A stretch of DNA of 50,040 nt from the IMG/VR virus record IMGVR_UViG_2529293039_000013; one strand, written 5' to 3'. A program made the position numbers and the translations under genes. Origin of the DNA: a virus (lineage: Duplodnaviria > Heunggongvirae > Uroviricota > Caudoviricetes). Shown here piece by piece: positions 23,218-38,330 of this stretch. The notes beneath the pieces were generated by a model. The model was not told where the DNA came from. It did not search any database and saw only the letters and a list, made by a program, of their open reading frames with translations. Positions within the stretch are counted from its first letter, which is position 1. Each line of letters starts with the position of its first letter.

Positions 23218-25116
23218 TTCTGCAGGAGCGATAGCAACCGGCCTCCTTGCGCTAAAAATTCCTGTCCCTCTGACGACAGTTCAGTGGGCAGATCGACATT
23301 ATTACCTTCCGAAAGAGTCATCTTACACCCCGGGGCGGTGGGAAACACTGCCGTTTCAGGTTGCCATCATGAACAGCATGGGGAATGACCGGATCCGCAC
23401 TGTTAATCTGATTAAATCTGCCCGTGTTGGTTATACAAAGATGTTGCTGGGAGTGGAGGCTTATTTTATTGAGCATAAATCACGCAACAGCCTTCTTTTC
23501 CAGCCCACGGATTCTGCTGCTGAAGATTTTATGAAATCTCATGTGGAACCCACGATCAGGGATGTGCCGGTTTTACTCGATCTTGCACCGTGGTTTGGGC
23601 GTAAACATCGTGATAATACCCTCACGCTGAAACGCTTTTCATCGGGCGTCGGTTTCTGGTGCCTGGGCGGCGCTGCCGCCAAAAACTACCGTGAAAAATC
23701 CGTGGACGTGGTCTGCTATGACGAACTTTCCTCGTTCGAGCCGGATGTCGAAAAAGAGGGCTCGCCAACCCTGCTGGGGGATAAGCGTATTGAGGGGTCG
23801 GTGTGGCCAAAATCCATTCGCGGCTCGACGCCTAAAATCAAAGGCACCTGCCAGATCGAAAAAGCGGCCAACGAGTCGGCGCATTTCATGCGTTTTTATG
23901 TGCCCTGCCCGCACTGTGGGGAGGCGCAGTATCTGAAATTTGGCGATGAGTCCACGCCTTTTGGGCTTAAATGGGAGAAGGACAGTCCCGAAAGCGTTTT
24001 CTACCTCTGTGAACATCATGGCTGCGTGATCCATCAGTCTGAGCTTGACCAGAACAACGGGCGGTGGATCTGTGAAAACACGGGCATGTGGACCCGTGAC
24101 GGTCTGACGTTTTTCAGCGCCCGGGGTGATGAAATTCCGCCGCCGCGCTCCATCACGTTCCATATCTGGACGGCGTACAGTCCGTTCACCACCTGGGTAC
24201 AGATTGTCTATGACTGGCTGGATGCACTGAAAGATCCCAACGGCCTGAAAACCTTTGTGAACACCACGCTGGGCGAGACCTGGGAAGAGGCCGTGGGCGA
24301 AAAACTCGATCACCAGGTACTGATGGATAAGGTGGTGCGTTACACGGCGGCGGTGCCTGCCCGGGTGGTTTATCTGACGGCGGGCATTGACTCGCAGCGA
24401 AACCGTTTTGAGATGTATGTCTGGGGATGGGCTCCGGGAGAGGAAGCTTTTCTGGTGGATAAAATCATCATTATGGGGCGTCCTGATGAGGAAGAGACGC
24501 TGTTACGTGTGGATGCGGCGATCACAAAAAATACCGCCATGCGGATGGCACCGAAATGACTATTTCCCGTGTCTGCTGGGACACCGGGGGGATCGATGGT
24601 GAAATTGTTTATCAGAGATCAAAAAAACACGGTGTTTTCCGGGTGCTGCCGGTAAAAGGCGCATCTGTCTATGGCAAGCCGGTGATCACCATGCCAAAAA
24701 CCCGCAATCAGCGGGGCGTGTATCTGTGTGAAGTGGGAACGGACACCGCAAAAGAAATTCTCTATGCCCGTATGAAAGCCGATCCCTCGCCTGCGGATGA
24801 AGCCACGTCGTATGCCATCCGTTTTCCTGATGATCCGGAGATTTTTTCGCAGACAGAGGCGCAGCAACTGGTGGCGGAAGAGCTGGTGGAGAAGTGGGAA
24901 AAAGGAAAGATGCGTCTGCTGTGGGATAACAAAAAGCGGCGTAACGAAGCGCTGGACTGCCTGGTGTATGCCTACGCGGCATTACGTGTGTCCGTGCAAC
25001 GCTGGCAGCTTGATCTGGCTGTACTGGCAAAATCCCGGGAAGAAGAGACGACCCGGCCAACCCTGAAAGAACTGGCAGCGAAGCTGTCCGGAGGAGTGAA
25101 TGGTTACAGTCGCTGA
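23189..25116 (+). pseudogene. terminase large subunit (lambda A-like), interrupted by a frameshift
   Basis: track ORFs 23147-24559 and 24556-25116 are in different frames; both match lambda gpA; junction in an A-run. Confidence 0.8.
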
Positions 25117-25306
25117 ACTGCAGGCGCTGCGTCAGGCGCGCCTTGATTTATTAACCGGTAAACGGGTGGTGTCTGTCCAGAAAGATGGTCGCAGAATTGA
25201 ATATACGGCGGCTTCTCTGGATGAGCTTAACCGGGCGATCAATGATGCGGAGTCGGTACTGGGGACAACCCGGCGTCGCCGTCGTCCGCTGGGAGTGAGG
25301 TTATGA
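25100..25306 (+). CDS. head-tail joining protein W
   Basis: 68 aa; LTGKRVVSVQKDGRRIEYTAAS matches lambda gpW from memory. Confidence 0.8.
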   Translation: MVTVAELQALRQARLDLLTGKRVVSVQKDGRRIEYTAASLDELNRAINDAESVLGTTRRRRRPLGVRL

Positions 25307-26896
25307 AACGAACGCCTGTCCTGATTGATGTGAACGGCGTTCCGCTTCGTGAGAGTCTCAGCTACAACGGGGGCGGTGCAGGATTTGGCGGGCAAATGGC
25401 GGAGTGGTTGCCACCGGCGCAGAGTGCCGATGCGGCCCTGCTGCCCGCGTTGCGTCTGGGGAATGCCCGGGCAGATGATCTGGTGCGCAATAACGGAATA
25501 GCGGCCAATGCGGTGGCCCTGCATAAGGATCACATTGTCGGGCATATGTTTCTTATCAGCTACCGTCCGAACTGGCGCTGGCTGGGGATGCGGGAGACCG
25601 CAGCAAAAAGCTTTGTCGATGAGGTGGAGGCGGCCTGGTCGGAATACGCCGAAGGGATGTCTGGCGAGATCGACGTGGAAGGAAAACGCACGTTCACGGA
25701 ATTTATCCGTGAAGGTGTGGGCGTTCATGCGTTTAACGGCGAAATCTTTGTGCAGCCGGTCTGGGATACGGAAACCACGCAGTTATTCCGTACGCGTTTT
25801 AAAGCCGTGAGTCCGAAACGGGTGGACACGCCAGGACACGGTATGGGGAACCGTTTTCTGCGGGCCGGGGTGGAGGTCGATCGATATGGCCGTGCCGTTG
25901 CGTACCATATCTGTGAGGATGATTTTCCGTTCTCCGGGAGTGGACGATGGGAACGGATCCCGCGTGAACTTCCCACCGGGCGTCCGGCCATGCTGCATAT
26001 TTTCGAGCCGGTAGAGGACGGGCAGACCCGTGGGGCCAACCAGTTTTACAGCGTCATGGAACGGCTGAAGATGCTCGATTCCCTGCAGGCAACACAGCTT
26101 CAGTCGGCCATTGTGAAAGCCATGTATGCAGCGACGATTGAAAGTGACCTTGATACCGAAAAGGCCTTTGAATATATCGCCGGTGCGCCGCAGGGGCAGA
26201 AGGATAATCCGCTTATTAATATTCTGGAGAAGTTCTCCAGCTGGTATGACACGAATAACGTGACGCTGGGTGGTGTCAAAATTCCGCACCTTTTCCCCGG
26301 GGATGATCTGAAACTACAGACTGCGCAGGATTCAGACAATGGATTTTCGGCGCTTGAACAGGCGCTGCTGCGGTATATCGCCGCCGGTTCTTGGCGTTTC
26401 CTACGAACAGTTGTCCCGTGATTACTCGAAGGTCAGTTATTCAAGTGCCAGGGCCTCTGCCAATGAGTCGTGGCGCTATTTTATGGGGCGGCGAAAATTT
26501 ATTGCGGCCCGGCTGGCCACGCAGATGTTTTCCTGCTGGCTGGAAGAGGCACTTCTTCGGGGGATTATCCGTCCGCCACGGGCGCGTTTTGATTTTTATC
26601 AGGCGCGATCAGCCTGGTCACGGGCAGAGTGGATTGGTGCCGGAAGAATGGCCATTGACGGGCTCAAGGAGGTTCAGGAATCGGTGATGCGCATTGAGGC
26701 CGGACTGAGCACGTATGAGAAAGAGCTGGCGCTGATGGGCGAGGATTATCAGGACATTTTCCGCCAGCAGGTCAGGGAATCTGCAGAGCGGCAAAAAGCC
26801 GGACTCTCACGTCCGGTGTGGATAGCGCAGGCGTATCAGCAGCAGATAGCGGAGAGTCGCAGGCCGGAAGAGGAGACAACACCCCGTGAGACGTAA
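25303..26896 (+). pseudogene. portal protein (lambda B-like), interrupted by a frameshift
   Basis: track ORFs 25303-26421 and 26339-26896 in different frames; junction at LLRYIAAG / LGVSYEQLS. Confidence 0.8.
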
Positions 26897-28393
26897 TCTT
26901 TCACACATTATTGCCGCAGCATTCAATGAACCGCTGCTTCTGGAGCCCGCCTATGCGCGGGTTTTCTTTTGCGCGCTCGGGCGCGAGATGGGGGCAGCAA
27001 GTCTTTCGGTACCACAGCAGCAGGTACAGCTTGATGCTCCCGGAATGCTGGCTGAAACGGACGAGTACATGGCCGGAGGTAAACGACCGGCCCGTGTTTA
27101 CCGGGTGGTGAACGGTATTGCGGTACTGCCGGTGACCGGCACGCTGGTGCACCGGCTGGGGGGGATGCGGCCATTTTCCGGAATGACAGGCTATGACGGC
27201 ATTGTCGCCTGTCTTCAGCAGGCAATGGCGGATAGCCAGGTGCGGGGCGTACTGCTGGGACATTGACAGTCCGGGCGGGCAGGCCGCCGGCGCGTTTGAC
27301 TGCGCTGACATGATTTACCGCCTCCGTCAGCAGAAGCCGGTCTGGGCACTGTAGCAATGACACGGCCTGTTCTGCAGCCATGCTGCTGGCGTCGGCCTGC
27401 TCCCGACGGCTGGTTACCCAGACATCCCGTATCGGCTCCATTGGCGTGATGATGAGCCATGTCAGCTATGCCGGTCATCTGGCGCAGGCCGGTGTGGATA
27501 TCACGCTGATTTACTCAGGGGCGCACAAGGTGGATGGCAATCAGTTTGAAGCCTTACCGGCAGAGGTTCGCCAGGACATGCAGCAGCGCATTGATGCGGC
27601 GCGCCGGATGTTTGCCGAAAAAGTGGCCATGTTTACCGGTCTGTCTGTTGATGCCGTCACGGGAACAGAGGCCGCCGTTTTTGAAGGTCAGTCCGGCATT
27701 GATGCCGGGCTGGCGGATGAATTAGTCAATGCGTCGGATGCCATCAGTGTGATGGCCACGGCGCTGAACAGTAATGTCAGAGGAGGCACTATGCCGCAAT
27801 TAACTGCAACGGAAGCCGCCGCGCAGGAGAACCAGCGAGTGATGGGGATCCTGACATGCCAGGAAGCGAAAGGACGTGAACAGCTTGCCACGATGCTGGC
27901 AGGACAACAGGGCATGAGCGTTGAACAGGCCCGGGCGATTCTGGCCGCGGCGGCACCGCAGCAGCCGGTGGCATCCACGCAGAGTGAAGCCGATCGCATT
28001 ATGGCGTGTGAAGAAGCGAACGGTCGTGAACAACTGGCGGCAACGCTGGCGGCGATGCCGGAGATGACGGTGGAAAAAGCCCGCCCGATCCTGGCTGCTT
28101 CACCGCAGGCGGATGCCGGACCCTCACTCCGTGATCAGATCATGGCACTGGATGAGGCAAAAGGGGCTGAGGCGCAGGCTGAACAGCTGGCTGCCTGCCC
28201 GGGAATGACTGTGGAGAGCGCCCGGGCTGTGCTGGCTGCGGGATCAGGTAAGGCAGAACCGGTCTCTGCATCCACAACCGCCCTGTTTGAACGCATCATG
28301 GCGAACCATTCACCGGCTGCGGTACAGGGTGGCGTGCCACAGACGTCAGCAGACGGTGATGCGGACGTGAAAATGCTCATGGCCATGCCATGA
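26886..28393 (+). pseudogene. head maturation protease/scaffold C (lambda C/Nu3-like), interrupted by two frameshifts
   Basis: N-part ends 27266, C-part starts 27380; conserved middle segment reads in the third frame. Confidence 0.75.
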
Positions 28394-28429
28394 AGCCAGT
28401 GCTGACCATCAACAGGAGGTTTTTACAAT

Positions 28430-28777
28430 ATGGTAACGAAAAACATCACTGAACAGCGTGCGGAAGTACGTATTTTTGCCGGTAATGATCCGGCTCATAC
28501 CGCCACAGGCAGCAGCGGGATTTCCTCGGCAACACCGGCACTGACGCCCCTGATGCTGGATGAAGCCAGCGGGAAACTGGTGGTCTGGGACGGACAGAAA
28601 GCCGGTAGTGCAGTTGGCATACTGGTACTGCCGCTTGAAGGCACAGAGACGGTACTGACCTATTACAAGTCGGGGACCTTTGCGACGGAGGCAATCCGCT
28701 GGCCTGAAAGTGTGGATGAACACAAAAAGGCAAATGCCTTTGCCGGCAGTGCCCTGAGTCACGCGGCGCTGCCGTAA
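28430..28777 (+). CDS. head decoration protein D
   Basis: GNDPAHTATGSSG and YYKSGTFAT motifs match lambda gpD from memory. Confidence 0.8.
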   Translation: MVTKNITEQRAEVRIFAGNDPAHTATGSSGISSATPALTPLMLDEASGKLVVWDGQKAGSAVGILVLPLEGTETVLTYYKSGTFATEAIRWPESVDEHKKANAFAGSALSHAALP

Positions 28778-28834
28778 CACGTTATCAGGCCACCGCGGTG
28801 GCCTGACTGATTTCTGAATGAAAGGAACTGATTT

Positions 28835-29863
28835 ATGGGATTGTTTACGACCCGCCAGTTACTCGGTTATACCGAACAAAAAGTGAAATTTCGTGCGCTG
28901 TTTCTGGAGCTGTTTTTCCGCCGTACGGTGAATTTCCATACCGAAGAGGTGATGCTGGACAAAATTACCGGAAAAACGCCGGTGGCGGCCTATGTCTCCC
29001 CGGTTGTTGAAGGAAAAGTGCTGCGTCATCGCGGTGGTGAAACCCGCGTGTTACGTCCGGGCTACGTCAAGCCGAAACACGAATTTAATTACCAGCAGGC
29101 GGTTGAGCGTCTTCCCGGTGAAGATCCGGCTCAACTGAACGACCCGGCCTACCGTCGTCTGCGTATCATCACCGATAACCTCAAACAGGAAGAGCATGCC
29201 ATTGTCCAGGTGGAAGAAATGCAGGCGGTGAATGCCGTGCTGTATGGCAAATACACCATGGAAGGGGATCAGTTTGATACTGTCGAGGTGGATTTTGGAC
29301 GCTCTGAAGGAAATAACATTGAGCAGGCCGACGGTAAAAAATGGTCTGAGCAGGACCGTGATACGTTTGATCCGACGCATGATATTGACCTCTACTGCGA
29401 TCAGGCCAGCGGTCTTGTGAATATTGCCATTATGGACGGTACTGTCTGGCGTCTGCTGAATGGTTTTAAGCTGTTCCGCGAAAAACTGGATACCCGTCGC
29501 GGCTCAAATTCACAACTCGAAACGGCAGTGAAAGACCTGGGCGCGGTGGTGTCTTTCAAAGGGTATTACGGCGATCTGGCCATTGTGGTGGCGAAAACGT
29601 CTTATGTGGCAGAGGACGGTACCGAAAAACGTTATCTGCCGGAGGGCACGCTGGTCCTGGGAAATACGGCTGCAGATGGGATCCGTTGTTACGGTGCCAT
29701 TCAGGATGCGCAGGCGTTGTCCGAAGGTGTGGTGGCTTCTTCCCGTTACCCGAAACACTGGCTGACCGTGGGCGATCCGGCCCGTGAATTTACCATGACG
29801 CAGTCCGCACCGCTGATGGTGCTGCCGGATCCGGATGAGTTTGTGGTGGTGCAGGTGAAATAA
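28835..29863 (+). CDS. major capsid protein E
   Basis: 342 aa; strong match to lambda gpE from memory (TGDPAREFTMTQSAPLM). Confidence 0.9.
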   Translation: MGLFTTRQLLGYTEQKVKFRALFLELFFRRTVNFHTEEVMLDKITGKTPVAAYVSPVVEGKVLRHRGGETRVLRPGYVKPKHEFNYQQAVERLPGEDPAQLNDPAYRRLRIITDNLKQEEHAIVQVEEMQAVNAVLYGKYTMEGDQFDTVEVDFGRSEGNNIEQADGKKWSEQDRDTFDPTHDIDLYCDQASGLVNIAIMDGTVWRLLNGFKLFREKLDTRRGSNSQLETAVKDLGAVVSFKGYYGDLAIVVAKTSYVAEDGTEKRYLPEGTLVLGNTAADGIRCYGAIQDAQALSEGVVASSRYPKHWLTVGDPAREFTMTQSAPLMVLPDPDEFVVVQVK

Positions 29864-29914
29864 TCCGTGAGCGGGGGCGAAATGCCCCCGTGTCTTTTTT
29901 CACAGGGGGCTGAT

Positions 29915-30298
29915 ATGGCAACAAAAGAAGAAAATCAGAAACGTCTTCGTCAACTGGCTGGCCTGCTGGGGCGCGAGGCGGATATGGCGGGGAGTGCTGC
30001 GGATATTGCGCAACGTGTGTCTGAGTGGGAAGAGGAGCTTGCTGCTTCCCGGGAGGGCATTATGCCTGGTGATGAGAGCGGGCCTGAGCAAAATCACACA
30101 GACGATGGTGAGCAGTTGCACAACACTGATGCTACGGATGATGTTAAAGCGGTCCGTGTGCGGAAATGCCTGCATGTGATGGGGTATTGCCCGGAAACAG
30201 GCCGTCCCGTTGAACTGACGTACCGGGGCATGCGTGTTCTGGTGCCATTACCACTGGCGACAGCCATGATACAGCACGGAACGGCTGAGCATGCGTGA
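29915..30298 (+). CDS. DNA packaging protein FI-like
   Basis: position between E and FII; internal start with AGGGGG RBS; weak similarity. Confidence 0.5.
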   Translation: MATKEENQKRLRQLAGLLGREADMAGSAADIAQRVSEWEEELAASREGIMPGDESGPEQNHTDDGEQLHNTDATDDVKAVRVRKCLHVMGYCPETGRPVELTYRGMRVLVPLPLATAMIQHGTAEHA

Positions 30299-30644
30299 TT
30301 TTCAGAATGCCTTTGATGCTGCCCTCGCCGGGGTGGACAGCACGATTGTTGAAGTGATGGGGCTCTGTGCGCAGTTCACCTCGGGGGCACAGTGTGGCAG
30401 CGAAGTTCAGGGGGTTTTTGACGATCCGGAGTCGCTGGGGTTTGCCGGTAGCGGGGTCCGTATTGAAGGAAGCAGCCCGTCATTATTTGTGCGGACGGAT
30501 ACGGTTCGTGCCGTGCGGCGTGGTGACACGCTGACCATTAATGGTGAGATATTCTGGGTGGATCGTGTTTCTCCGGATGACGGGGGCAGCTGTTATCTCT
30601 GGCTCAACCGTGGTCAACCACCCGCAGTTAACCGGCGACGATAA
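30291..30644 (+). CDS. head-tail connector FII
   Basis: 117 aa; C-terminus WVDRVSPDDGGSCYLWLNRGQPPAVNRRR matches lambda FII. Confidence 0.8.
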   Translation: MRDFQNAFDAALAGVDSTIVEVMGLCAQFTSGAQCGSEVQGVFDDPESLGFAGSGVRIEGSSPSLFVRTDTVRAVRRGDTLTINGEIFWVDRVSPDDGGSCYLWLNRGQPPAVNRRR

Positions 30645-30659
30645 ACGCAGGGTGAAATT

Positions 30660-31193
30660 ATGACGATAAAAGGGCTTGATCAGGCGATTGACAATCTGAG
30701 CCGGGTTCGTAAAAACGCCATTCCGGCGGCTTCAGCAATGGCCATTAACCGCGTGGCCACAACGGCGATTAATCAGTCTTCATCACAGGTTGCCCGGGAG
30801 ACCAAGGTTCGCCGGAAACTGGTTAAGGAACGGTCCAGACTGAAACGGGCGACGGTCAGAAATCCGAATGCCAGAATTATCGTTAACCGCGGTGATCTCC
30901 CTGTGATTAAGCTGGGGATCAGGATGCCGGGGCGTCGCCCGAACAGCATACTTAAAGCCGGTCAGCATCGGTATCAGCGGGCATTTATTCAGCGATTAAA
31001 AAATGGTCGCTGGCATGTCATGCAGCGTGTGGCCGGGAAAAACCGTTACCCCATTGATGTGGTGAAAATCCCGATGGCGGCCCCACTGAAACAGGCATTT
31101 GATGAGAATGTTGACCGTATCCGGCGTGAACGCCTGCCTAAAGAACTGGCATCCGTGCTGAAACAACAACTGAGGATTGCAATAAAACGATGA
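30660..31193 (+). CDS. tail completion protein Z
   Basis: N- and C-terminal thirds match lambda gpZ from memory; central region shorter and divergent. Confidence 0.8.
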   Translation: MTIKGLDQAIDNLSRVRKNAIPAASAMAINRVATTAINQSSSQVARETKVRRKLVKERSRLKRATVRNPNARIIVNRGDLPVIKLGIRMPGRRPNSILKAGQHRYQRAFIQRLKNGRWHVMQRVAGKNRYPIDVVKIPMAAPLKQAFDENVDRIRRERLPKELASVLKQQLRIAIKR

Positions 31194-31585
31194 AACACAC
31201 TGACATTCGTGCCGCAGTGCTGGATGCACTCGAGCAGCATGAACACGGGGCGACGCTGTTTGATGGTCGCCCCGTTGTTTTTGACGAAGAGGATTTTCCT
31301 GCGATCGCGGTTTATCTGACGGATGCAGAGTATACCGGTGAAGAGCTGGATGCAGATACCTGGCGGGCCACGCTGCATATTGAGGTGTTTTTACCGGCAC
31401 AGGTACCGGATTCAGAGCTTGATCAGTGGATGGAAAGCCGGATTTACCCGGCGATGACCGCGATCCCGGCACTGGCAGGACTGATTACCACGATGGTTAC
31501 GCAGGGCTATGAGTATCGTCGTGATGACGATATGGCGTTATGGAGTTCTGCAGATCTGACTTATTCCATTACATACGAGATGTGA
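31190..31585 (+). CDS. tail terminator protein U
   Basis: 131 aa; [18 protein letters not shown] matches lambda gpU. Confidence 0.85.
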
Positions 31586-31592
31586 GGACGAT

Positions 31593-32345
31593 ATGGCAAC
31601 ACCAAATCCCCTTGAGCCGGTAAAAGGTGCCGGTACCACTCTGTGGGTTTACAACGGCAAGGGTGATGCTTATGCAAACCCGTTGTCAGACGATGACTGG
31701 CAGCGACTGGCTAAGGTGAAGGATCTGACGCCGGGCGAGATGACGGCAGAATCCTACGATGATAACTACCTGGATGATGAAGACGCGGACTGGACCGCGA
31801 CCGGGCAGGGGCAGAAATCTGCAGGTGATACCAGTTTTACGCTGGCCTGGAAACCGGGAGAGGAAGGCCAGAAAGGGCTTATAGGCTGGTTTGAAAGCGG
31901 CGATGTCCGGGCCTATAAAATCCGTTTTCCGAATGGCACGGTGGATGTGTTTCGTGGCTGGGTCAGCAGTATCGGTAAGGCCGTGACGGCGAAAGAAGTG
32001 ATCACCCGCACGGTGAAAGTCACTAACGTGGGTAAACCTTCTGTAGCGGAAGAACGCAGCAAAATTACGCCGGTCAGTGCGATTAAGGTGACGCCGACAT
32101 CCGGTACGGTGGCAAAAGGGAAAACAACCACCCTGACGGTTTCTTTTGAGCCGGAAAGTGCAACCGACAAGACGTTCAGAGCGGTTTCCGCCGATCCGTC
32201 GAAAGCCACCATTAGTGTGAAAGATATGACAATTACGGTAAACGGCGTGGCGACAGGTAAGGTGCAGATCCCTGTGGTGAGCGGAAATGGTCAGTTCGCC
32301 GCAGTGGCTGAAGTCACCGTTACTGAAGCGGGCGCTGCAGGGTAA
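31593..32345 (+). CDS. major tail protein V with C-terminal Ig-like domain
   Basis: strong match to lambda gpV ([11 protein letters not shown]...). Confidence 0.9.
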
Positions 32346-32358
32346 ACGGAGGTCATAC

Positions 32359-32790
32359 ATGTTTCTGAAAACAGAACAATTTGAATATAACGGTGTGTCC
32401 GTCACGCTTTCCGAATTGTCTGCGCTGCAGCGTATTGAGCATCTTGCCCTCCTGAAACGGCGTGCAGAACAGGCAGAATCCAGCGGCAACCTGCAGGTAA
32501 GCGTGGAAGATCTCGTCAGAACCGGCGCGTTTCTGGTGGCGATGTCCCTGTGGCATAACCATCCGCAGAAAACGGCATCACCGTCAATGAATGAGGCTGT
32601 GATGCAGATCGAACAGGAGGTGCTCACCACCTGGCCTGCGGATGCCATTGCCCGGGCGGAAGATGTGGTGTTGCGTCTGTCCGGGATGAGCGGGGCTGTT
32701 CATGCGGATACTGACAGCACCGAAGTGGCGAAAAATAACGCGCTGACTGATGATGATTTTTCTGCGGGAAAGTCTTCGACGGCGAGCTGA
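32359..32790 (+). CDS. tail assembly chaperone G
   Basis: MFLKTEQFEYNGVSVTLSELSALQRIEHLAL matches lambda gpG; GGAGG RBS. Confidence 0.8.
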   Translation: MFLKTEQFEYNGVSVTLSELSALQRIEHLALLKRRAEQAESSGNLQVSVEDLVRTGAFLVAMSLWHNHPQKTASPSMNEAVMQIEQEVLTTWPADAIARAEDVVLRLSGMSGAVHADTDSTEVAKNNALTDDDFSAGKSSTAS

Positions 32791-33230
32791 ATTTTGCCCT
32801 CAGACTGGCGCGTGAGATGGGGAGGCCTGACTGGCGCGCCATGCTTGCCGGGATGACATCCACCGAATATGCCGACTGGCGACATTTTTACCGTACGCAT
32901 TATTTTCTCGATACCCAACTGGATATGCATTTTTCCGGGCTGACGTACGCCGTACTCAGCCTGTTTTTTTGCGATCCGGATATGCATCCCTCTGATTTCA
33001 GTCTGCTTGCCCCCCGGCGTGAGGAAGCGCAGACGGAGATGCCGGATGAGGAAAAAATGCTGATGCAGAAAGCGGCAGGACTTGCCGGAGGCGTCCGGTT
33101 TGGTGGGGACGGAGGGCGTGAGATTTTATCGTCTGCGGATGTGGCGGATGTCAGCGAGGATGATGTCGCATTAATGATGGCTTCAGCGGGGATTTCCGGA
33201 GGTGTGAGATATGTCCCAGCCGGTTGGTGA
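32359..33230 (+). CDS. tail assembly chaperone G-T fusion made by programmed -1 frameshift
   Basis: slippery G GGA AAG near end of G; -1 frame continues as T-like sequence (FDGELNFALRLAREMGRPDWRAMLAG) to 33230. Confidence 0.65.
32766..32772 (+). promoter_or_regulatory. programmed -1 ribosomal frameshift slippery heptamer GGGAAAG
   Basis: canonical lambda G-T slippery sequence in the expected frame. Confidence 0.6.
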
Positions 33231-35789
33231 TCTTGTTATTGACCTGAGTCTGGATGCGGTCCGTTTCGATGAGCAGATGAGCCGGGTAAGGCGTCATTTT
33301 TCCGGACTGGAGACTGACGCCAGAAAAACCGCCGGTGTTGTTGAGCAGAACCTGAGTCGTCAGGCGCTGGCTGCACAAAAAGCCGGGATTTCCGTCGGGC
33401 AGTATAAAGCGGCCATGCGAACCCTGCCCGCACAGTTTACGGATATCGCCACGCAGCTTGCCGGTGGTCAGAATCCCTGGCTGATCCTGCTGCAACAGGG
33501 CGGTCAGGTGAAGGACTCCTTCGGCGGGATGATCCCCATGCTCAGGGGACTTGCCGGTGCGATCACCCTGCCGATGGTCGGGGTCACCTCGCTGGCGGTG
33601 GCGACAGGTGCGCTGGCGTACGCCTGGTACCAGGGGGATTCCACGCTTTCAGCGTTTAATAAAACCCTGGTTCTTTCCGGTAATCAGTCCGGACTGACTG
33701 CCGATCGCATGCTGACGCTCTCCAGAGCCGGACAGGCCGCAGGGCTGACGTTTAACCAGGCGAGTGAGTCACTGGCAGCCCTGGTGAATGCCGGTGTGCG
33801 TGGTGGTGAACAGTTTGATGCCATCAACCAGAGTGTCGCGCGTTTTGCTTCTGCATCCGGTGTGGAGGTGGACAAGGTTGCAGAGGCTTTCGGAAAACTG
33901 ACTACCGACCCGACGTCGGGACTGATGGCGATGGCGCGCCAGTTCCGTAACGTGACGGCAGAGCAGATTGCGTATGTTGCACAGCTGCAGCGTTCCGGAG
34001 ACGAGGCCGGGGCATTGCAGGCGGCGAACGATATCGCCACGAAAGGCTTTGATGAGCAGACCCGTCGCCTGAAAGAAAACATGGGAACACTGGAGACCTG
34101 GGCGGATAAAACAGGGAAGGCATTCAAATCGATGTGGGATGCCATTCTGGATATCGGTCGTCCTGAGTCCTCAGCGGATATGCTCGCCAGTGCACAGAAG
34201 GCATTTGATGAGGCGGATAAAAAATGGCAGTGGTACCAGAGCCGGAGCCAGCGCCGGGGAAAACCGCCTCTTTCCGGGCCAACCTTCAGGGCGCATGGAA
34301 TGACCGGGAAAATGCCCGTCTGGGGCTGGCAGCGGCCACGCTGCAGTCGGATATGGAAAAAGCCGGTGAACTGGCCGCCAGGGACCGGGCCGAACGGGAC
34401 GCATCACAGCTGAAGTATACCGGAGAGGCGCAGAAGGCGTATGAGCGTCTGCTGACGCCGCTGGAGAAATATACCGCCCGTCAGGAAGAACTGAATAAGG
34501 CCCTGAAAGACGGGAAAATCCTGCAGGCGGATTACAACACGCTGATGGCGGCGGCGAAAAAGGATTATGAATCGACGCTGAAAAAGCCGAAGTCGTCAGG
34601 AGTCAAAGTGTCAGCCGGTGAGCGTCAGGAAGACCAGGCGCATGCTGCCCTGCTGGCGCTTGAAACCGAGCTCCGGACGCTGGAAAAACACAGCGGTGCG
34701 AATGAGAAAATCAGCCAGCAGCGTCGCGATTTATGGAAAGCGGAAAATCAGTATGCGGTCCTGAAAGAGGCAGCCACGAAACGGCAGTTATCTGAGCAGG
34801 AAAAATCCCTGCTGACCCATGAGAAAGAGACGCTGGAGTACAAACGCCAGCTGGCTGAGCTGGGAGACAAAGTTGAACACCAGAAACGGCTGAATGAGCT
34901 GGCACAGCAGGCTGCGCGGTTTGAACAGCAGCAGAGTGCGAAGCAGGCGGCAATCAGTGCCCAGGCGCGGGGCCTCACCGACCGTCAGGTGCAGCGGGAG
35001 TCGGAAGAGCAGCGCCTTCGTGACGTGTACGGTGATAATCCGGATGCGCTGGCGAAGGCCACATCTGCACTGAAGAACACCTGGTCTGCGGAGGAGCAGC
35101 TTCGTGGAAGCTGGATGGCCGGTCTGAAGTCCGGCTGGGGCGAGTGGGCAGAAAGTGCGACGGACAGTTTTTCGCAGGTTAAAAGCGTGGCCACGCAGAC
35201 CTTTGACGGTATTGCACAGAATATGGCAGCGATGCTGACCGGCAGCGAACAGAGCTGGCGTGGTTTCACCCGTTCTGTGCTCTCCATGCTGACAGAGATT
35301 TTTCTGAAGCAGGCCATGGTGGGGATTGTCGGGAGTATTGGCAGCGCCATGGGTGGTGCTTTCGGTGGTGGGGCGTCTGCCTCCACGGGGACGGCCATTC
35401 AGGCTGCGGCGGCGAACTTCCATTTCGCGACCGGAGGATTTACGGGAACCGGTGGCAAATACGAACCTGCCGGTATTGTCCACCGCGGGGAGTTTGTCTT
35501 CACGAAGGAGGCAACCAGCCGGATTGGCGTCGGCAACCTGTATCGTCTGATGCGCGGGTATGCGGAAGGTGGTTATGTGGGCGGTGCCGGAAGTCCGGCG
35601 CAGATGCGGCGGGCGGAAGGCATTAGTTTTAATCAGAACAATCACGTGGTGATTCAGAACGACGGCACCAACGGACAGGCGGGGCCGCAGCTGATGAAGG
35701 CGGTGTATGACATGGCCCGCAAGGGGGCGCAGGATGAGATTCAGGCGCAGATGCGTGATGGCGGCGTCTTTTCCGGAGGCAGGCGATGA
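33211..35789 (+). pseudogene. tail tape measure protein H, interrupted by a frameshift
   Basis: track ORFs 33211-34413 and 34224-35789 in different frames; both match lambda gpH; junction at an A-run. Confidence 0.8.
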
Positions 35790-36115
35790 AAACATTTCGC
35801 TGGAAAGTGAAGCCGGATATGGAGGTGAACTCGCAGCCATCGGTGCGTGAAGTGCGTTTTGGTGACGGGTATTCGCAGCGTATGGCGGCGGGGCTGAATG
35901 CTGACCTGAAAACATACCGTGTGACGCTTTCCGTGACCCGGGAGGAGGCCCGACATCTGGAGGCATTCCTGGCAGAGCACGGTGGCTGGAAGGCGTTTCT
36001 GTGGACACCGCCTTATGCCTGGCGGCAGATAAAGGTGACCTGTGCCGCCTGGTCATCACGGGTTCGCATGCTGCGGGTTGAATTCAGCGCGGAGTTTAAG
36101 CAGGTGGTGAACTGA
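35786..36115 (+). CDS. tail tip protein M
   Basis: 109 aa; MKTFRWKVKP matches lambda gpM. Confidence 0.85.
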   Translation: MKTFRWKVKPDMEVNSQPSVREVRFGDGYSQRMAAGLNADLKTYRVTLSVTREEARHLEAFLAEHGGWKAFLWTPPYAWRQIKVTCAAWSSRVRMLRVEFSAEFKQVVN

Positions 36116-36813
36116 TGCAGGATATTCACGAAGAAAGTCTGAACGAGTCGGTTAAATCAGAGCAGTCACCGCGGGTGGTACTCTGGGAAATCGACCTGAC
36201 GGTACAGGGTGGTGAGCGGTATTTTTTCTGCAATGAGCTGAATGAAAAAGGGGAGGCGGTTACCTGGCAGGGGCGGCAATATCAGGCATACCCGATTGAC
36301 GGCAGTGGCTTTGAGATGAACGGGAAGGGCAGCAGTGCCCGCCCGTCGCTGACGGTGTCGAATCTGTTCGGTCTGGTCACCGGAATGGCGGAGGACCTGC
36401 AGAGCCTGGTGGGGGCCACGGTGGTCCGCCGCCGGGTGTATGCCCGTTTTCTGGATGCGGTGAATTTTGTGGCGGGCAATCCGGAAGCGGACCCGGAGCA
36501 GGAGCTGAGCGACCGCTGGGTGGTGGAGCAGATGTCAGAGCTGACGGCCATGACAGCCTCGTTTGTGCTGGCAACACCGACGGAGACGGACGGAGCGCTG
36601 TTTCCCGGTCGCATCATGCTGGCGAACACCTGTATGTGGGATTACCGGGGAGATGAATGCGGGTATAACGGTCCTGCGGTGGCGGATGAGTTCGATAAAC
36701 CCACCACCGATATCCGTAAGGACAGATGCAGCAAGTGCATGCGCGGGTGTGAGATGCGCGGCATGGTGGCTAATTTTGGCGGTTTCCTTTCCATTAACAA
36801 ACTTTCGCAGTAA
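36115..36813 (+). CDS. tail tip protein L
   Basis: 232 aa; matches lambda gpL incl. C-terminal FGGFLSINKLSQ. Confidence 0.85.
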   Translation: MQDIHEESLNESVKSEQSPRVVLWEIDLTVQGGERYFFCNELNEKGEAVTWQGRQYQAYPIDGSGFEMNGKGSSARPSLTVSNLFGLVTGMAEDLQSLVGATVVRRRVYARFLDAVNFVAGNPEADPEQELSDRWVVEQMSELTAMTASFVLATPTETDGALFPGRIMLANTCMWDYRGDECGYNGPAVADEFDKPTTDIRKDRCSKCMRGCEMRGMVANFGGFLSINKLSQ

Positions 36814-36818
36814 ATCCA

Positions 36819-37562
36819 ATGACACAGACAGAATCAGCGATTCTGGCGCATGCCCGGCGGTGTGTGCCTGCGGAGTCGTGCGGCTTCGTGGTGAGAACGC
36901 CGGAGGGGGAGCGGTATATCCCTTGTGTGAATATCTCTGCAGAGCCTGAGGCATATTTTCGTATTGCCCCGGAAGACTGGCTGCGGGCAGAGATGCAGGG
37001 GGAGATTGTGGCGCTGGTTCACAGTCGTCCCGGTGGTCTGCCCTGGCTGAGCGAGGCTGACCGGCGGCTGCAGATAAAAAGCGCACTGCCCTGGTGGCTG
37101 GTCAGCCGGGGTGACATTCACAAATTCCGCTGCGTTCCGCACCTGACCGGACGGCGCTTTGAACACGGGGTGACGGACTGTTACACCCTGTTCCGGGATG
37201 CATACCATCTGGCGGGGATTGAGATGCCGGATTTTCACCGTGAGGATGAGTGGTGGCGCAACGGTCAGAACCTGTACCTGGACAATATGGAGGCAACGGG
37301 CTTTTACCGGGTGCCCCTGTCCTCTGCACAGGCGGGCGATATCCTGCTGTGCTGCTTTGGCGCATCGGTGGCCAATCATGCCGCCATTTACTGCGGCAAC
37401 GGTGAACTGCTTCACCATCTGCCTGAACAACTGAGTAAACGGGAGAGGTATTCCGAAAAATGGCAACGACGAACGCATTCTGTCTGGCGTCACCGCCACT
37501 GGCACGCATCTGCCTTCACGGGGATTTGCAACGATTTGGCCGCCGCCTCAGCCTGTATGTGA
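36819..37562 (+). CDS. tail tip assembly protein K; 3' extent uncertain, overlaps I
   Basis: N-terminus TESAILAHARRC...ESCGFVV matches lambda gpK. Confidence 0.75.
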   Translation: MTQTESAILAHARRCVPAESCGFVVRTPEGERYIPCVNISAEPEAYFRIAPEDWLRAEMQGEIVALVHSRPGGLPWLSEADRRLQIKSALPWWLVSRGDIHKFRCVPHLTGRRFEHGVTDCYTLFRDAYHLAGIEMPDFHREDEWWRNGQNLYLDNMEATGFYRVPLSSAQAGDILLCCFGASVANHAAIYCGNGELLHHLPEQLSKRERYSEKWQRRTHSVWRHRHWHASAFTGICNDLAAASACM

Positions 37563-38140
37563 ACACGGCAGCGGAAGCCATCCGGGCGCTGTCGTTACAG
37601 GTGCCGGGATTCCGCCGTCAGATGAACGAAGGCTGGTACCAGATACGTATTGCCGGTGAAGACACGGCACCGGAGGTGGTGTACGCCCGCCTTCACGAAC
37701 AGCTGGGTGAGGGAACGGTCATCCACATTGTGCCGCGACTGGCCGGGGCCGGAAAGGGTGGACTGCAGATTGTGTTGGGGGCGGCAGCCATCGTGGGCTC
37801 TTTCTTCACTGCCGGGGCATCAATGGCGTTATGGGGTTCAGCCCTGGCAGCCGGTGGTTTTTCTGCCACCACGATGCTGTTTTCTCTGGGGGCCAGCATG
37901 ATTCTGGGTGGTGTGGCTCAGATGCTGGCCCCGAAGGCTAAAGTACCGGAGTACAAAAGCACGGATAACGGCAGACAGAACACGTATTTTTCGTCACTGG
38001 ACAACATGATTGCCCAGGGGAACCCGATGCCGGTGCCTTACGGGGAAATGCTGGTTGGCTCCCGCCGTATATCCCAGGACATCAGTACCCGTGATGAAGG
38101 CGGGGGCGGAAAGGTCGTGGTTATCGGGCGGCAGGCATAA
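37460..38140 (+). CDS. tail tip assembly protein I
   Basis: ICLHGDLQRFGRR and C-terminal hydrophobic region match lambda gpI. Confidence 0.8.
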   Translation: MATTNAFCLASPPLARICLHGDLQRFGRRLSLYVNTAAEAIRALSLQVPGFRRQMNEGWYQIRIAGEDTAPEVVYARLHEQLGEGTVIHIVPRLAGAGKGGLQIVLGAAAIVGSFFTAGASMALWGSALAAGGFSATTMLFSLGASMILGGVAQMLAPKAKVPEYKSTDNGRQNTYFSSLDNMIAQGNPMPVPYGEMLVGSRRISQDISTRDEGGGGKVVVIGRQA

Positions 38141-38330
38141 AAGCGAAAAAATCCCGCAGTGCTCACGGACAGGAACTGCGGGAGCGTTACGAAGATTGAG
38201 TGTAAGGAATTATTCTTATGTCACGACAAAAACATTAACTCAGAGAGGGAGGATGTGCCGTTCTTTTCAGGGAGAAAGGATTTATCGTCCTGAGGAATAA
38301 AGGTAAGGGGCCCGCCCCTTACCTGACTGA

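Follow-up and report, generated by a model that had tools for sequence, protein, structure and literature searches.

A one-base deletion in a G4A5 tract probably makes tape measure gene H of a decaying lambdoid prophage a pseudogene

The tape measure protein of phage lambda (gpH) has 853 amino acids, and its homologues in lambdoid prophages of E. coli have 857–859. In E. coli O157 Sakai, only 3 of the 10 lambda-like prophages have all morphogenesis genes (PMC2669165), and co-resident prophages can help to mobilize the defective ones (Asadulghani et al, 2009; PMC2669165). The sapB Stx2a prophages of STEC CC119 (O165:H25/O172:H25; LC727840–LC727872), which were sequenced by long PCR and Illumina, were gained by the ancestor common to this lineage and have been stably kept since (PMC10132054). 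The stretch of DNA analyzed here (the window; 50,040 nt, IMG/VR record IMGVR_UViG_2529293039_000013) is prophage from end to end. It shares with lambda the gene order V-G-T-H-M-L-K-I-J, of which G, T, H, M, L, K, I, and J were located across 32359–42464 by tblastn with the proteins of an intact prophage, and it also shares both Pfam domains of H. Like the defective lambdoid prophages of EHEC/EPEC that carry T3SS effectors, it combines a lambda-like late region, in which several morphogenesis genes are inactivated, with an inserted IS element and effector cargo, although the “defective prophage pool” of Sakai concerns a different strain and a different prophage. Whereas intact H genes are single ORFs, that of the window is interrupted at codon ∼350 by a one-base deletion; when repaired, its product is 99.5% identical to H of the WP_406874337 type and 79% identical to lambda H. 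No description of this lesion, the shortening of an A5 run to A4, was found in the literature on related prophages.

According to the ORF list and the translations, H consists of two overlapping frames on the plus strand, 33211–34413 and 34224–35789, which comprise 400 and 521 codons, respectively, compared with the single frame of ∼853–859 codons of the functional gene. The upstream frame encodes TMP_2 (PF06791; 2.8e-69, 233 bits, residues 54–256), and the downstream frame, which is −1 relative to it, encodes Tape_meas_lam_C (PF09718; 2.3e-21, 76 bits). When an intact H of 859 amino acids was used as the tblastn query, its residues 1–358 were found in the upstream frame and its residues 350–859, with 99.2% identity, in the downstream frame. 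One half corresponds to the N-terminal and the other to the C-terminal part of a tape measure protein of the lambda type, and the addition of one base restores H as a single open frame of 859 codons. In the upstream frame, ∼350 native N-terminal codons (to ∼34263) are followed by ∼50 out-of-frame codons and a TGA at 34411–34413. In the downstream frame, homology with intact H extends from ∼34257 through the stop, and its initial 12 codons (MAVVPEPEPAPG) are non-H sequence. H of the window is, thus, a pseudogene, i.e., a non-functional member of the gpH family. The ATG at 34224, with which the downstream ORF starts, has the sequence GAGG 10 nt 5′ of it (window 34210–34226); an independent start at this ATG, leading to a predicted C-terminal H fragment of 521 amino acids, is conceivable.

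The two frames overlap around an A6 run at 34219–34224 (plus strand), which is contained in gatAAAAAAtgg and encodes Lys-Lys in the upstream frame; the window reads gaggcggatAAAAAAtggcag around it. The first-pass annotation had described this overlap, and both the frames and the run are indeed present, but it had also placed the missing base within the run. The probability that intact genes have A7 there is practically nil. The run is the longest homopolymer of the 190-nt zone in which an insertion reopens the frame; however, every intact homologue examined has A6 at this position, too. Of the 57 homologous loci fetched, 55 have A6, among them all intact H genes compared, and the run is identical in the intact H of PhiR12_1, phage 2B8, Z1323HEC0423, ML35, and 2013C-4991. 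In phages PhiR12_1 and 2B8, which are viable and have an H of 857 and 859 amino acids, respectively, and in E. coli chromosomes, intact H is translated through the run as ...ADKKWQWYQSRSQRRGKT... or ...AFDEADKKWQWYQSRSQRRGKT.... Alignment to intact H genes, thus, identifies A6 as the wild-type state and rules out a repair from A6 to A7; the gap falls at 34260–34263 instead. Runs of this length are commonplace, with 27 of at least six A and 29 of at least six T in the window.

The position of the lesion cannot be derived from the sequence of the window alone because 176 of the 192 possible single-base insertion points in the zone (34221–34410; the downstream frame opens at 34221, and the upstream one extends to 34410) result in an open frame of 859 codons. 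The zone contains six homopolymer runs of at least four. Three chromosomal alleles, 99.5–99.7% identical to that of the window, have an H span of 2,580 bp each, compared with 2,579 bp in the window, and relative to each of them there is a single indel (CGCCGGGGAAAAACCGCC in the alleles, CGCCGGGGAAAACCGCC in the window). Where the intact alleles with 99.7% identity read CGCCGGGGAAAAACC, the window reads CGCCGGGGAAAACC. In alignments of the window with two comparators of 40 kb, H had no uncompensated indel other than this gap. Because it is the single gap relative to near-identical intact alleles, the lesion is A5→A4 at 34260–34263 (plus strand), directly following a G4 run (34256–34259) and 36–40 nt downstream of the A6 run. 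Among the loci fetched, 49 have A5 at this site and 8 have A4.

Repair at 34260–34263 yields ...DKKWQWYQSRSQRRGKTASF..., in which 12 of 12 residues are as in two close intact relatives and 11 of 12 as in H of phage 2B8 (82% identical); the conserved W of the repaired protein aligns with the W of lambda ADDIWNLRKDD. In contrast, of the 12 residues that separate the two runs in the protein previously predicted from repair at 34219–34224, ...DKKMAVVPEPEPAPGKTASF..., a single one agrees with the intact homologues. What holds of the original proposal is the kind of lesion, i.e., the loss of one A, the repair of which restores a full-length lambda-like gpH; its place and the predicted product do not. 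Looking for A7 in sequencing reads, which had been suggested as the refuting result, targets the wrong run, and the informative contrast is A4 versus A5 at 34260–34263. The best match to H of the window in complete RefSeq E. coli genomes is 99.7% identical, and no IMG/VR contig is identical. Compared with the nearest intact allele, there are six codon changes, two synonymous and four non-synonymous, which are too few for dN/dS.

The A4 allele is rare. Its exact 49-mer was present in 8 complete E. coli records, compared with 456 for the A5 50-mer, and A4 was found in 2 IMG/VR contigs, compared with 44 for A5. RefSeq annotates the gene as a “frameshifted” pseudogene in all three A4 carriers inspected. 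There are at least three local haplotypes with A4, and A5 sister alleles exist for every one of them; of the occurrences of the 300-nt flank of the window, for example, 15 have A5 and two have A4. Spread by recombination after a single origin of A4 is therefore unsupported. Being rare and yet present on at least three haplotypes, the sequences indicate that the G4A5 tract of H is a hot spot of recurrent deletion, presumably by slippage. Some of the A4 entries in the databases need not be real: the allele occurs sporadically in single long-read assemblies of O157:H7 and O145, one of which is rich in indels; the A4 carrier FWSEC0002 has more than 20 of them within H alone.

A4 is fixed in the CC119 Stx2a prophages: all 33 records (LC727840–LC727872) contain the exact A4 49-mer, with the identical A4 at the homologous position of H; the frameshift is unmentioned in the main text of the paper describing them (PMC10132054). 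Their H is 95% identical overall to that of the window and has a different downstream haplotype, and the deletion has therefore probably occurred independently. They also differ from the prophage of the window in that their head module is unlike that of the latter and that they carry stx2a. In LC727854 and LC727872, V, the major tail protein, matches only the C-terminal 56 residues of V of the comparator, and the V-equivalent gene of 2013C-4830 is, according to RefSeq, “incomplete; missing N-terminus.” The CC119 toxin prophages may be tail-defective beyond H. H is annotated as two CDS also in phage PhiR12_2_star (PV340551.1, 301–2873; host given as E. coli C), one of 811 amino acids and a short C-terminal piece, but the break is near the 3′ end, at a site unlike that of the window; possibly, the phage is viable and the C-terminus of its H is altered.

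H is not the only damaged gene in the window. Further frame breaks were detected by tblastn in terL, the portal gene, the gene for head protease C (two), and J, the adjacent protein being mostly ∼97–100% identical to that of relatives. In terL (terminase large subunit), the frame changes at ∼24524 (GATC-ACAAAAAA compared with GATCAACAAAAAA in relatives); a 41-mer spanning this break is absent from all other IMG/VR contigs, and the break is therefore either a mutation private to the window or an error in its consensus. The portal gene has one extra base at 26389, and the gene for the S49 head protease C has extra bases at ∼27257–27259 and 27353. For these three breaks, as for that in terL, recent mutation or an error in the consensus may be the cause. 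J (tail tip) has lost one A from an A6 run (A6→A5, GTTCAAAAACGA) at 41672–41677, and this break is common to four other IMG/VR contigs (L015–L018), which have a diverged J interrupted at the same residue (∼895–910). Between lom and the tail fiber gene, an IS21-family element of ∼2 kb is inserted (43182–45137), which encodes an IstA-like (rve) and an IstB_IS21 (7.7e-112) protein and is absent from both comparator prophages. Relatives have genes for T3SS effectors (espW, NleG family) downstream of the tail fiber genes, and an NleG-family protein and espW are annotated in the comparator over the matching stretch; in strain 14EC017, the prophage adjoins yecD. The H lesion is, thus, one of several in a decaying, effector-carrying lambdoid prophage, which is a known kind. 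Three phage tRNA genes, for tRNA-Met(cat), tRNA-Arg(tcg), and tRNA-Arg(tct), are clustered at 15439–15688 of the window; relatives annotate tRNA-Ile and tRNA-Arg in the matching region, and the tRNA with the CAT anticodon may be of the Ile2 type.

Four private one-base indels (∼24524, 26389, 27259, and 27353) in conserved genes (terL, portal, protease C), flanked by protein that is 98–100% identical to intact relatives, mean that the consensus of the window may be error-prone. The strain could, accordingly, truly have A5 and an intact H, with A4 being a homopolymer under-call in the record, as might be the case for the sporadic A4 entries from single O157:H7 and O145 long-read assemblies. To address this, IMG/VR was scanned for each frame break with exact 37–41-mers spanning it. 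For H, an exact 40-mer across A4 on the haplotype of the window was found in one contig, IMGVR_UViG_2529292920_000019 (L014), which is 99.79% identical to window positions 24994–39049. The additional bases of the window at 26389, 27259, and 27353 are missing from L014, which contains an extra T of its own opposite position 25180, in the small head-tail joining gene W, which is intact in the window; each of the two, thus, carries private indels. With 24 mismatches, 5 indels, and different breaks, L014 is an assembly separate from that of the window, and the deletion in H is not confined to one assembly, as L014 has A4 on the same haplotype. To judge from this contig and from the 33 Illumina-sequenced CC119 prophages, A4 is a genuine allele. 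A private sequencing error at H is disfavored, the breaks in both H and J being found in independent contigs, too, and appears unlikely as the source of A4 in the window. A systematic homopolymer error that affected both the window and L014 is, strictly speaking, still conceivable, but overall it is rather improbable that the strain has an intact H hidden behind a faulty consensus.

Another possibility is that the deletion is real but is corrected during translation. The A4 allele reads cgG GGA AAA ccg, so that, within the overlap of the two frames, a heptamer of the X XXY YYZ type (G GGA AAA, 34257–34263, plus strand) lies in the phase of the upstream frame, and ribosomes that slip by −1 on it would produce H with precisely the wild-type sequence. 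The heptamer differs by one base from the slip site of lambda G-T (G GGA AAG), which would act by the same −1 shift in the same phase. The genuine G-T site is present in the window as well, 1.5 kb upstream of the lesion: the canonical GGGAAAG is located at 32766–32772, close to where gene G ends, T is in the −1 frame, and both are 100% identical to their counterparts in an intact relative. Since each tail requires only a few H copies, even modest slippage might provide enough full-length protein for A4 to be tolerated or maintained, and the allele has been kept throughout the CC119 lineage. However, the deletion of one A from GGGGAAAAA automatically produces the heptamer, and there is no indication of selection for it. 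The G-T site of lambda is conserved and required, whereas that in H belongs to a mutant allele that is rare, its A-site codon, AAA, being less slippery, and the two-frame arrangement is not conserved, given the predominance of A5 over A4 in complete records and IMG/VR contigs alike. No stimulatory RNA structure beyond random expectation was predicted downstream of the heptamer (minimum free energy −32.9 kcal/mol, compared with −32.4 on average for shuffled sequences; z = −0.14). This absence weighs lightly, as some bacterial frameshift sites, e.g., that of lambda G-T, need no structure. Slippage at unstimulated heptamers in E. coli amounts to 2–10 times a background of 0.055% (∼0.1–0.5%), and the G_GG.A_AA.A motif is cited as inefficient in this organism (PMC4066793). 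Trace −1 read-through at G GGA AAA could, thus, occur. Functional recoding is nevertheless very improbable, also because other essential genes of the prophage are broken and because V of the CC119 prophages is apparently incomplete. Marginally less so, but improbable all the same, is a weaker version, in which A4 alleles are “self-correcting” and partly functional via low-level slippage, which could explain both their recurrence and their persistence in CC119.

We therefore favor, with considerable confidence, the reading that the G4A5 tract at 34256–34263 of a decaying prophage has lost one base (A5→A4), and that this deletion is real and inherited and makes H a pseudogene. The deletion would most likely have originated from replication slippage at this tract. 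Translation from the H start would then proceed out of frame after codon ∼350 to the TGA at 34411–34413, and the predicted product of 400 amino acids would lack the C-terminal 60% of the tape measure protein. A prophage with such a truncated H would have no tape measure protein of its own and could therefore not assemble tails unaided. The loss may be tolerated because the prophage is retained for its T3SS effector cargo and because H can be supplied by co-resident lambdoid prophages. H homologues were found in 3,719 of 5,426 genomes, with a median of two and a maximum of eight copies per genome, and supply in trans is therefore plausible.

The main value of this analysis is a correction: H is broken, but at another site than assumed, and the repaired protein proposed earlier was wrong over 12 residues. 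Overlapping ORFs alone cannot place a frameshift; for this, the gene has to be compared with intact alleles. The window adds one more multiply inactivated lambdoid prophage with effector genes to a kind that is already known. That the G4A5 hot spot has also been hit in the Stx2a prophages of O165:H25/O172:H25 bears on whether these toxin phages can spread autonomously.
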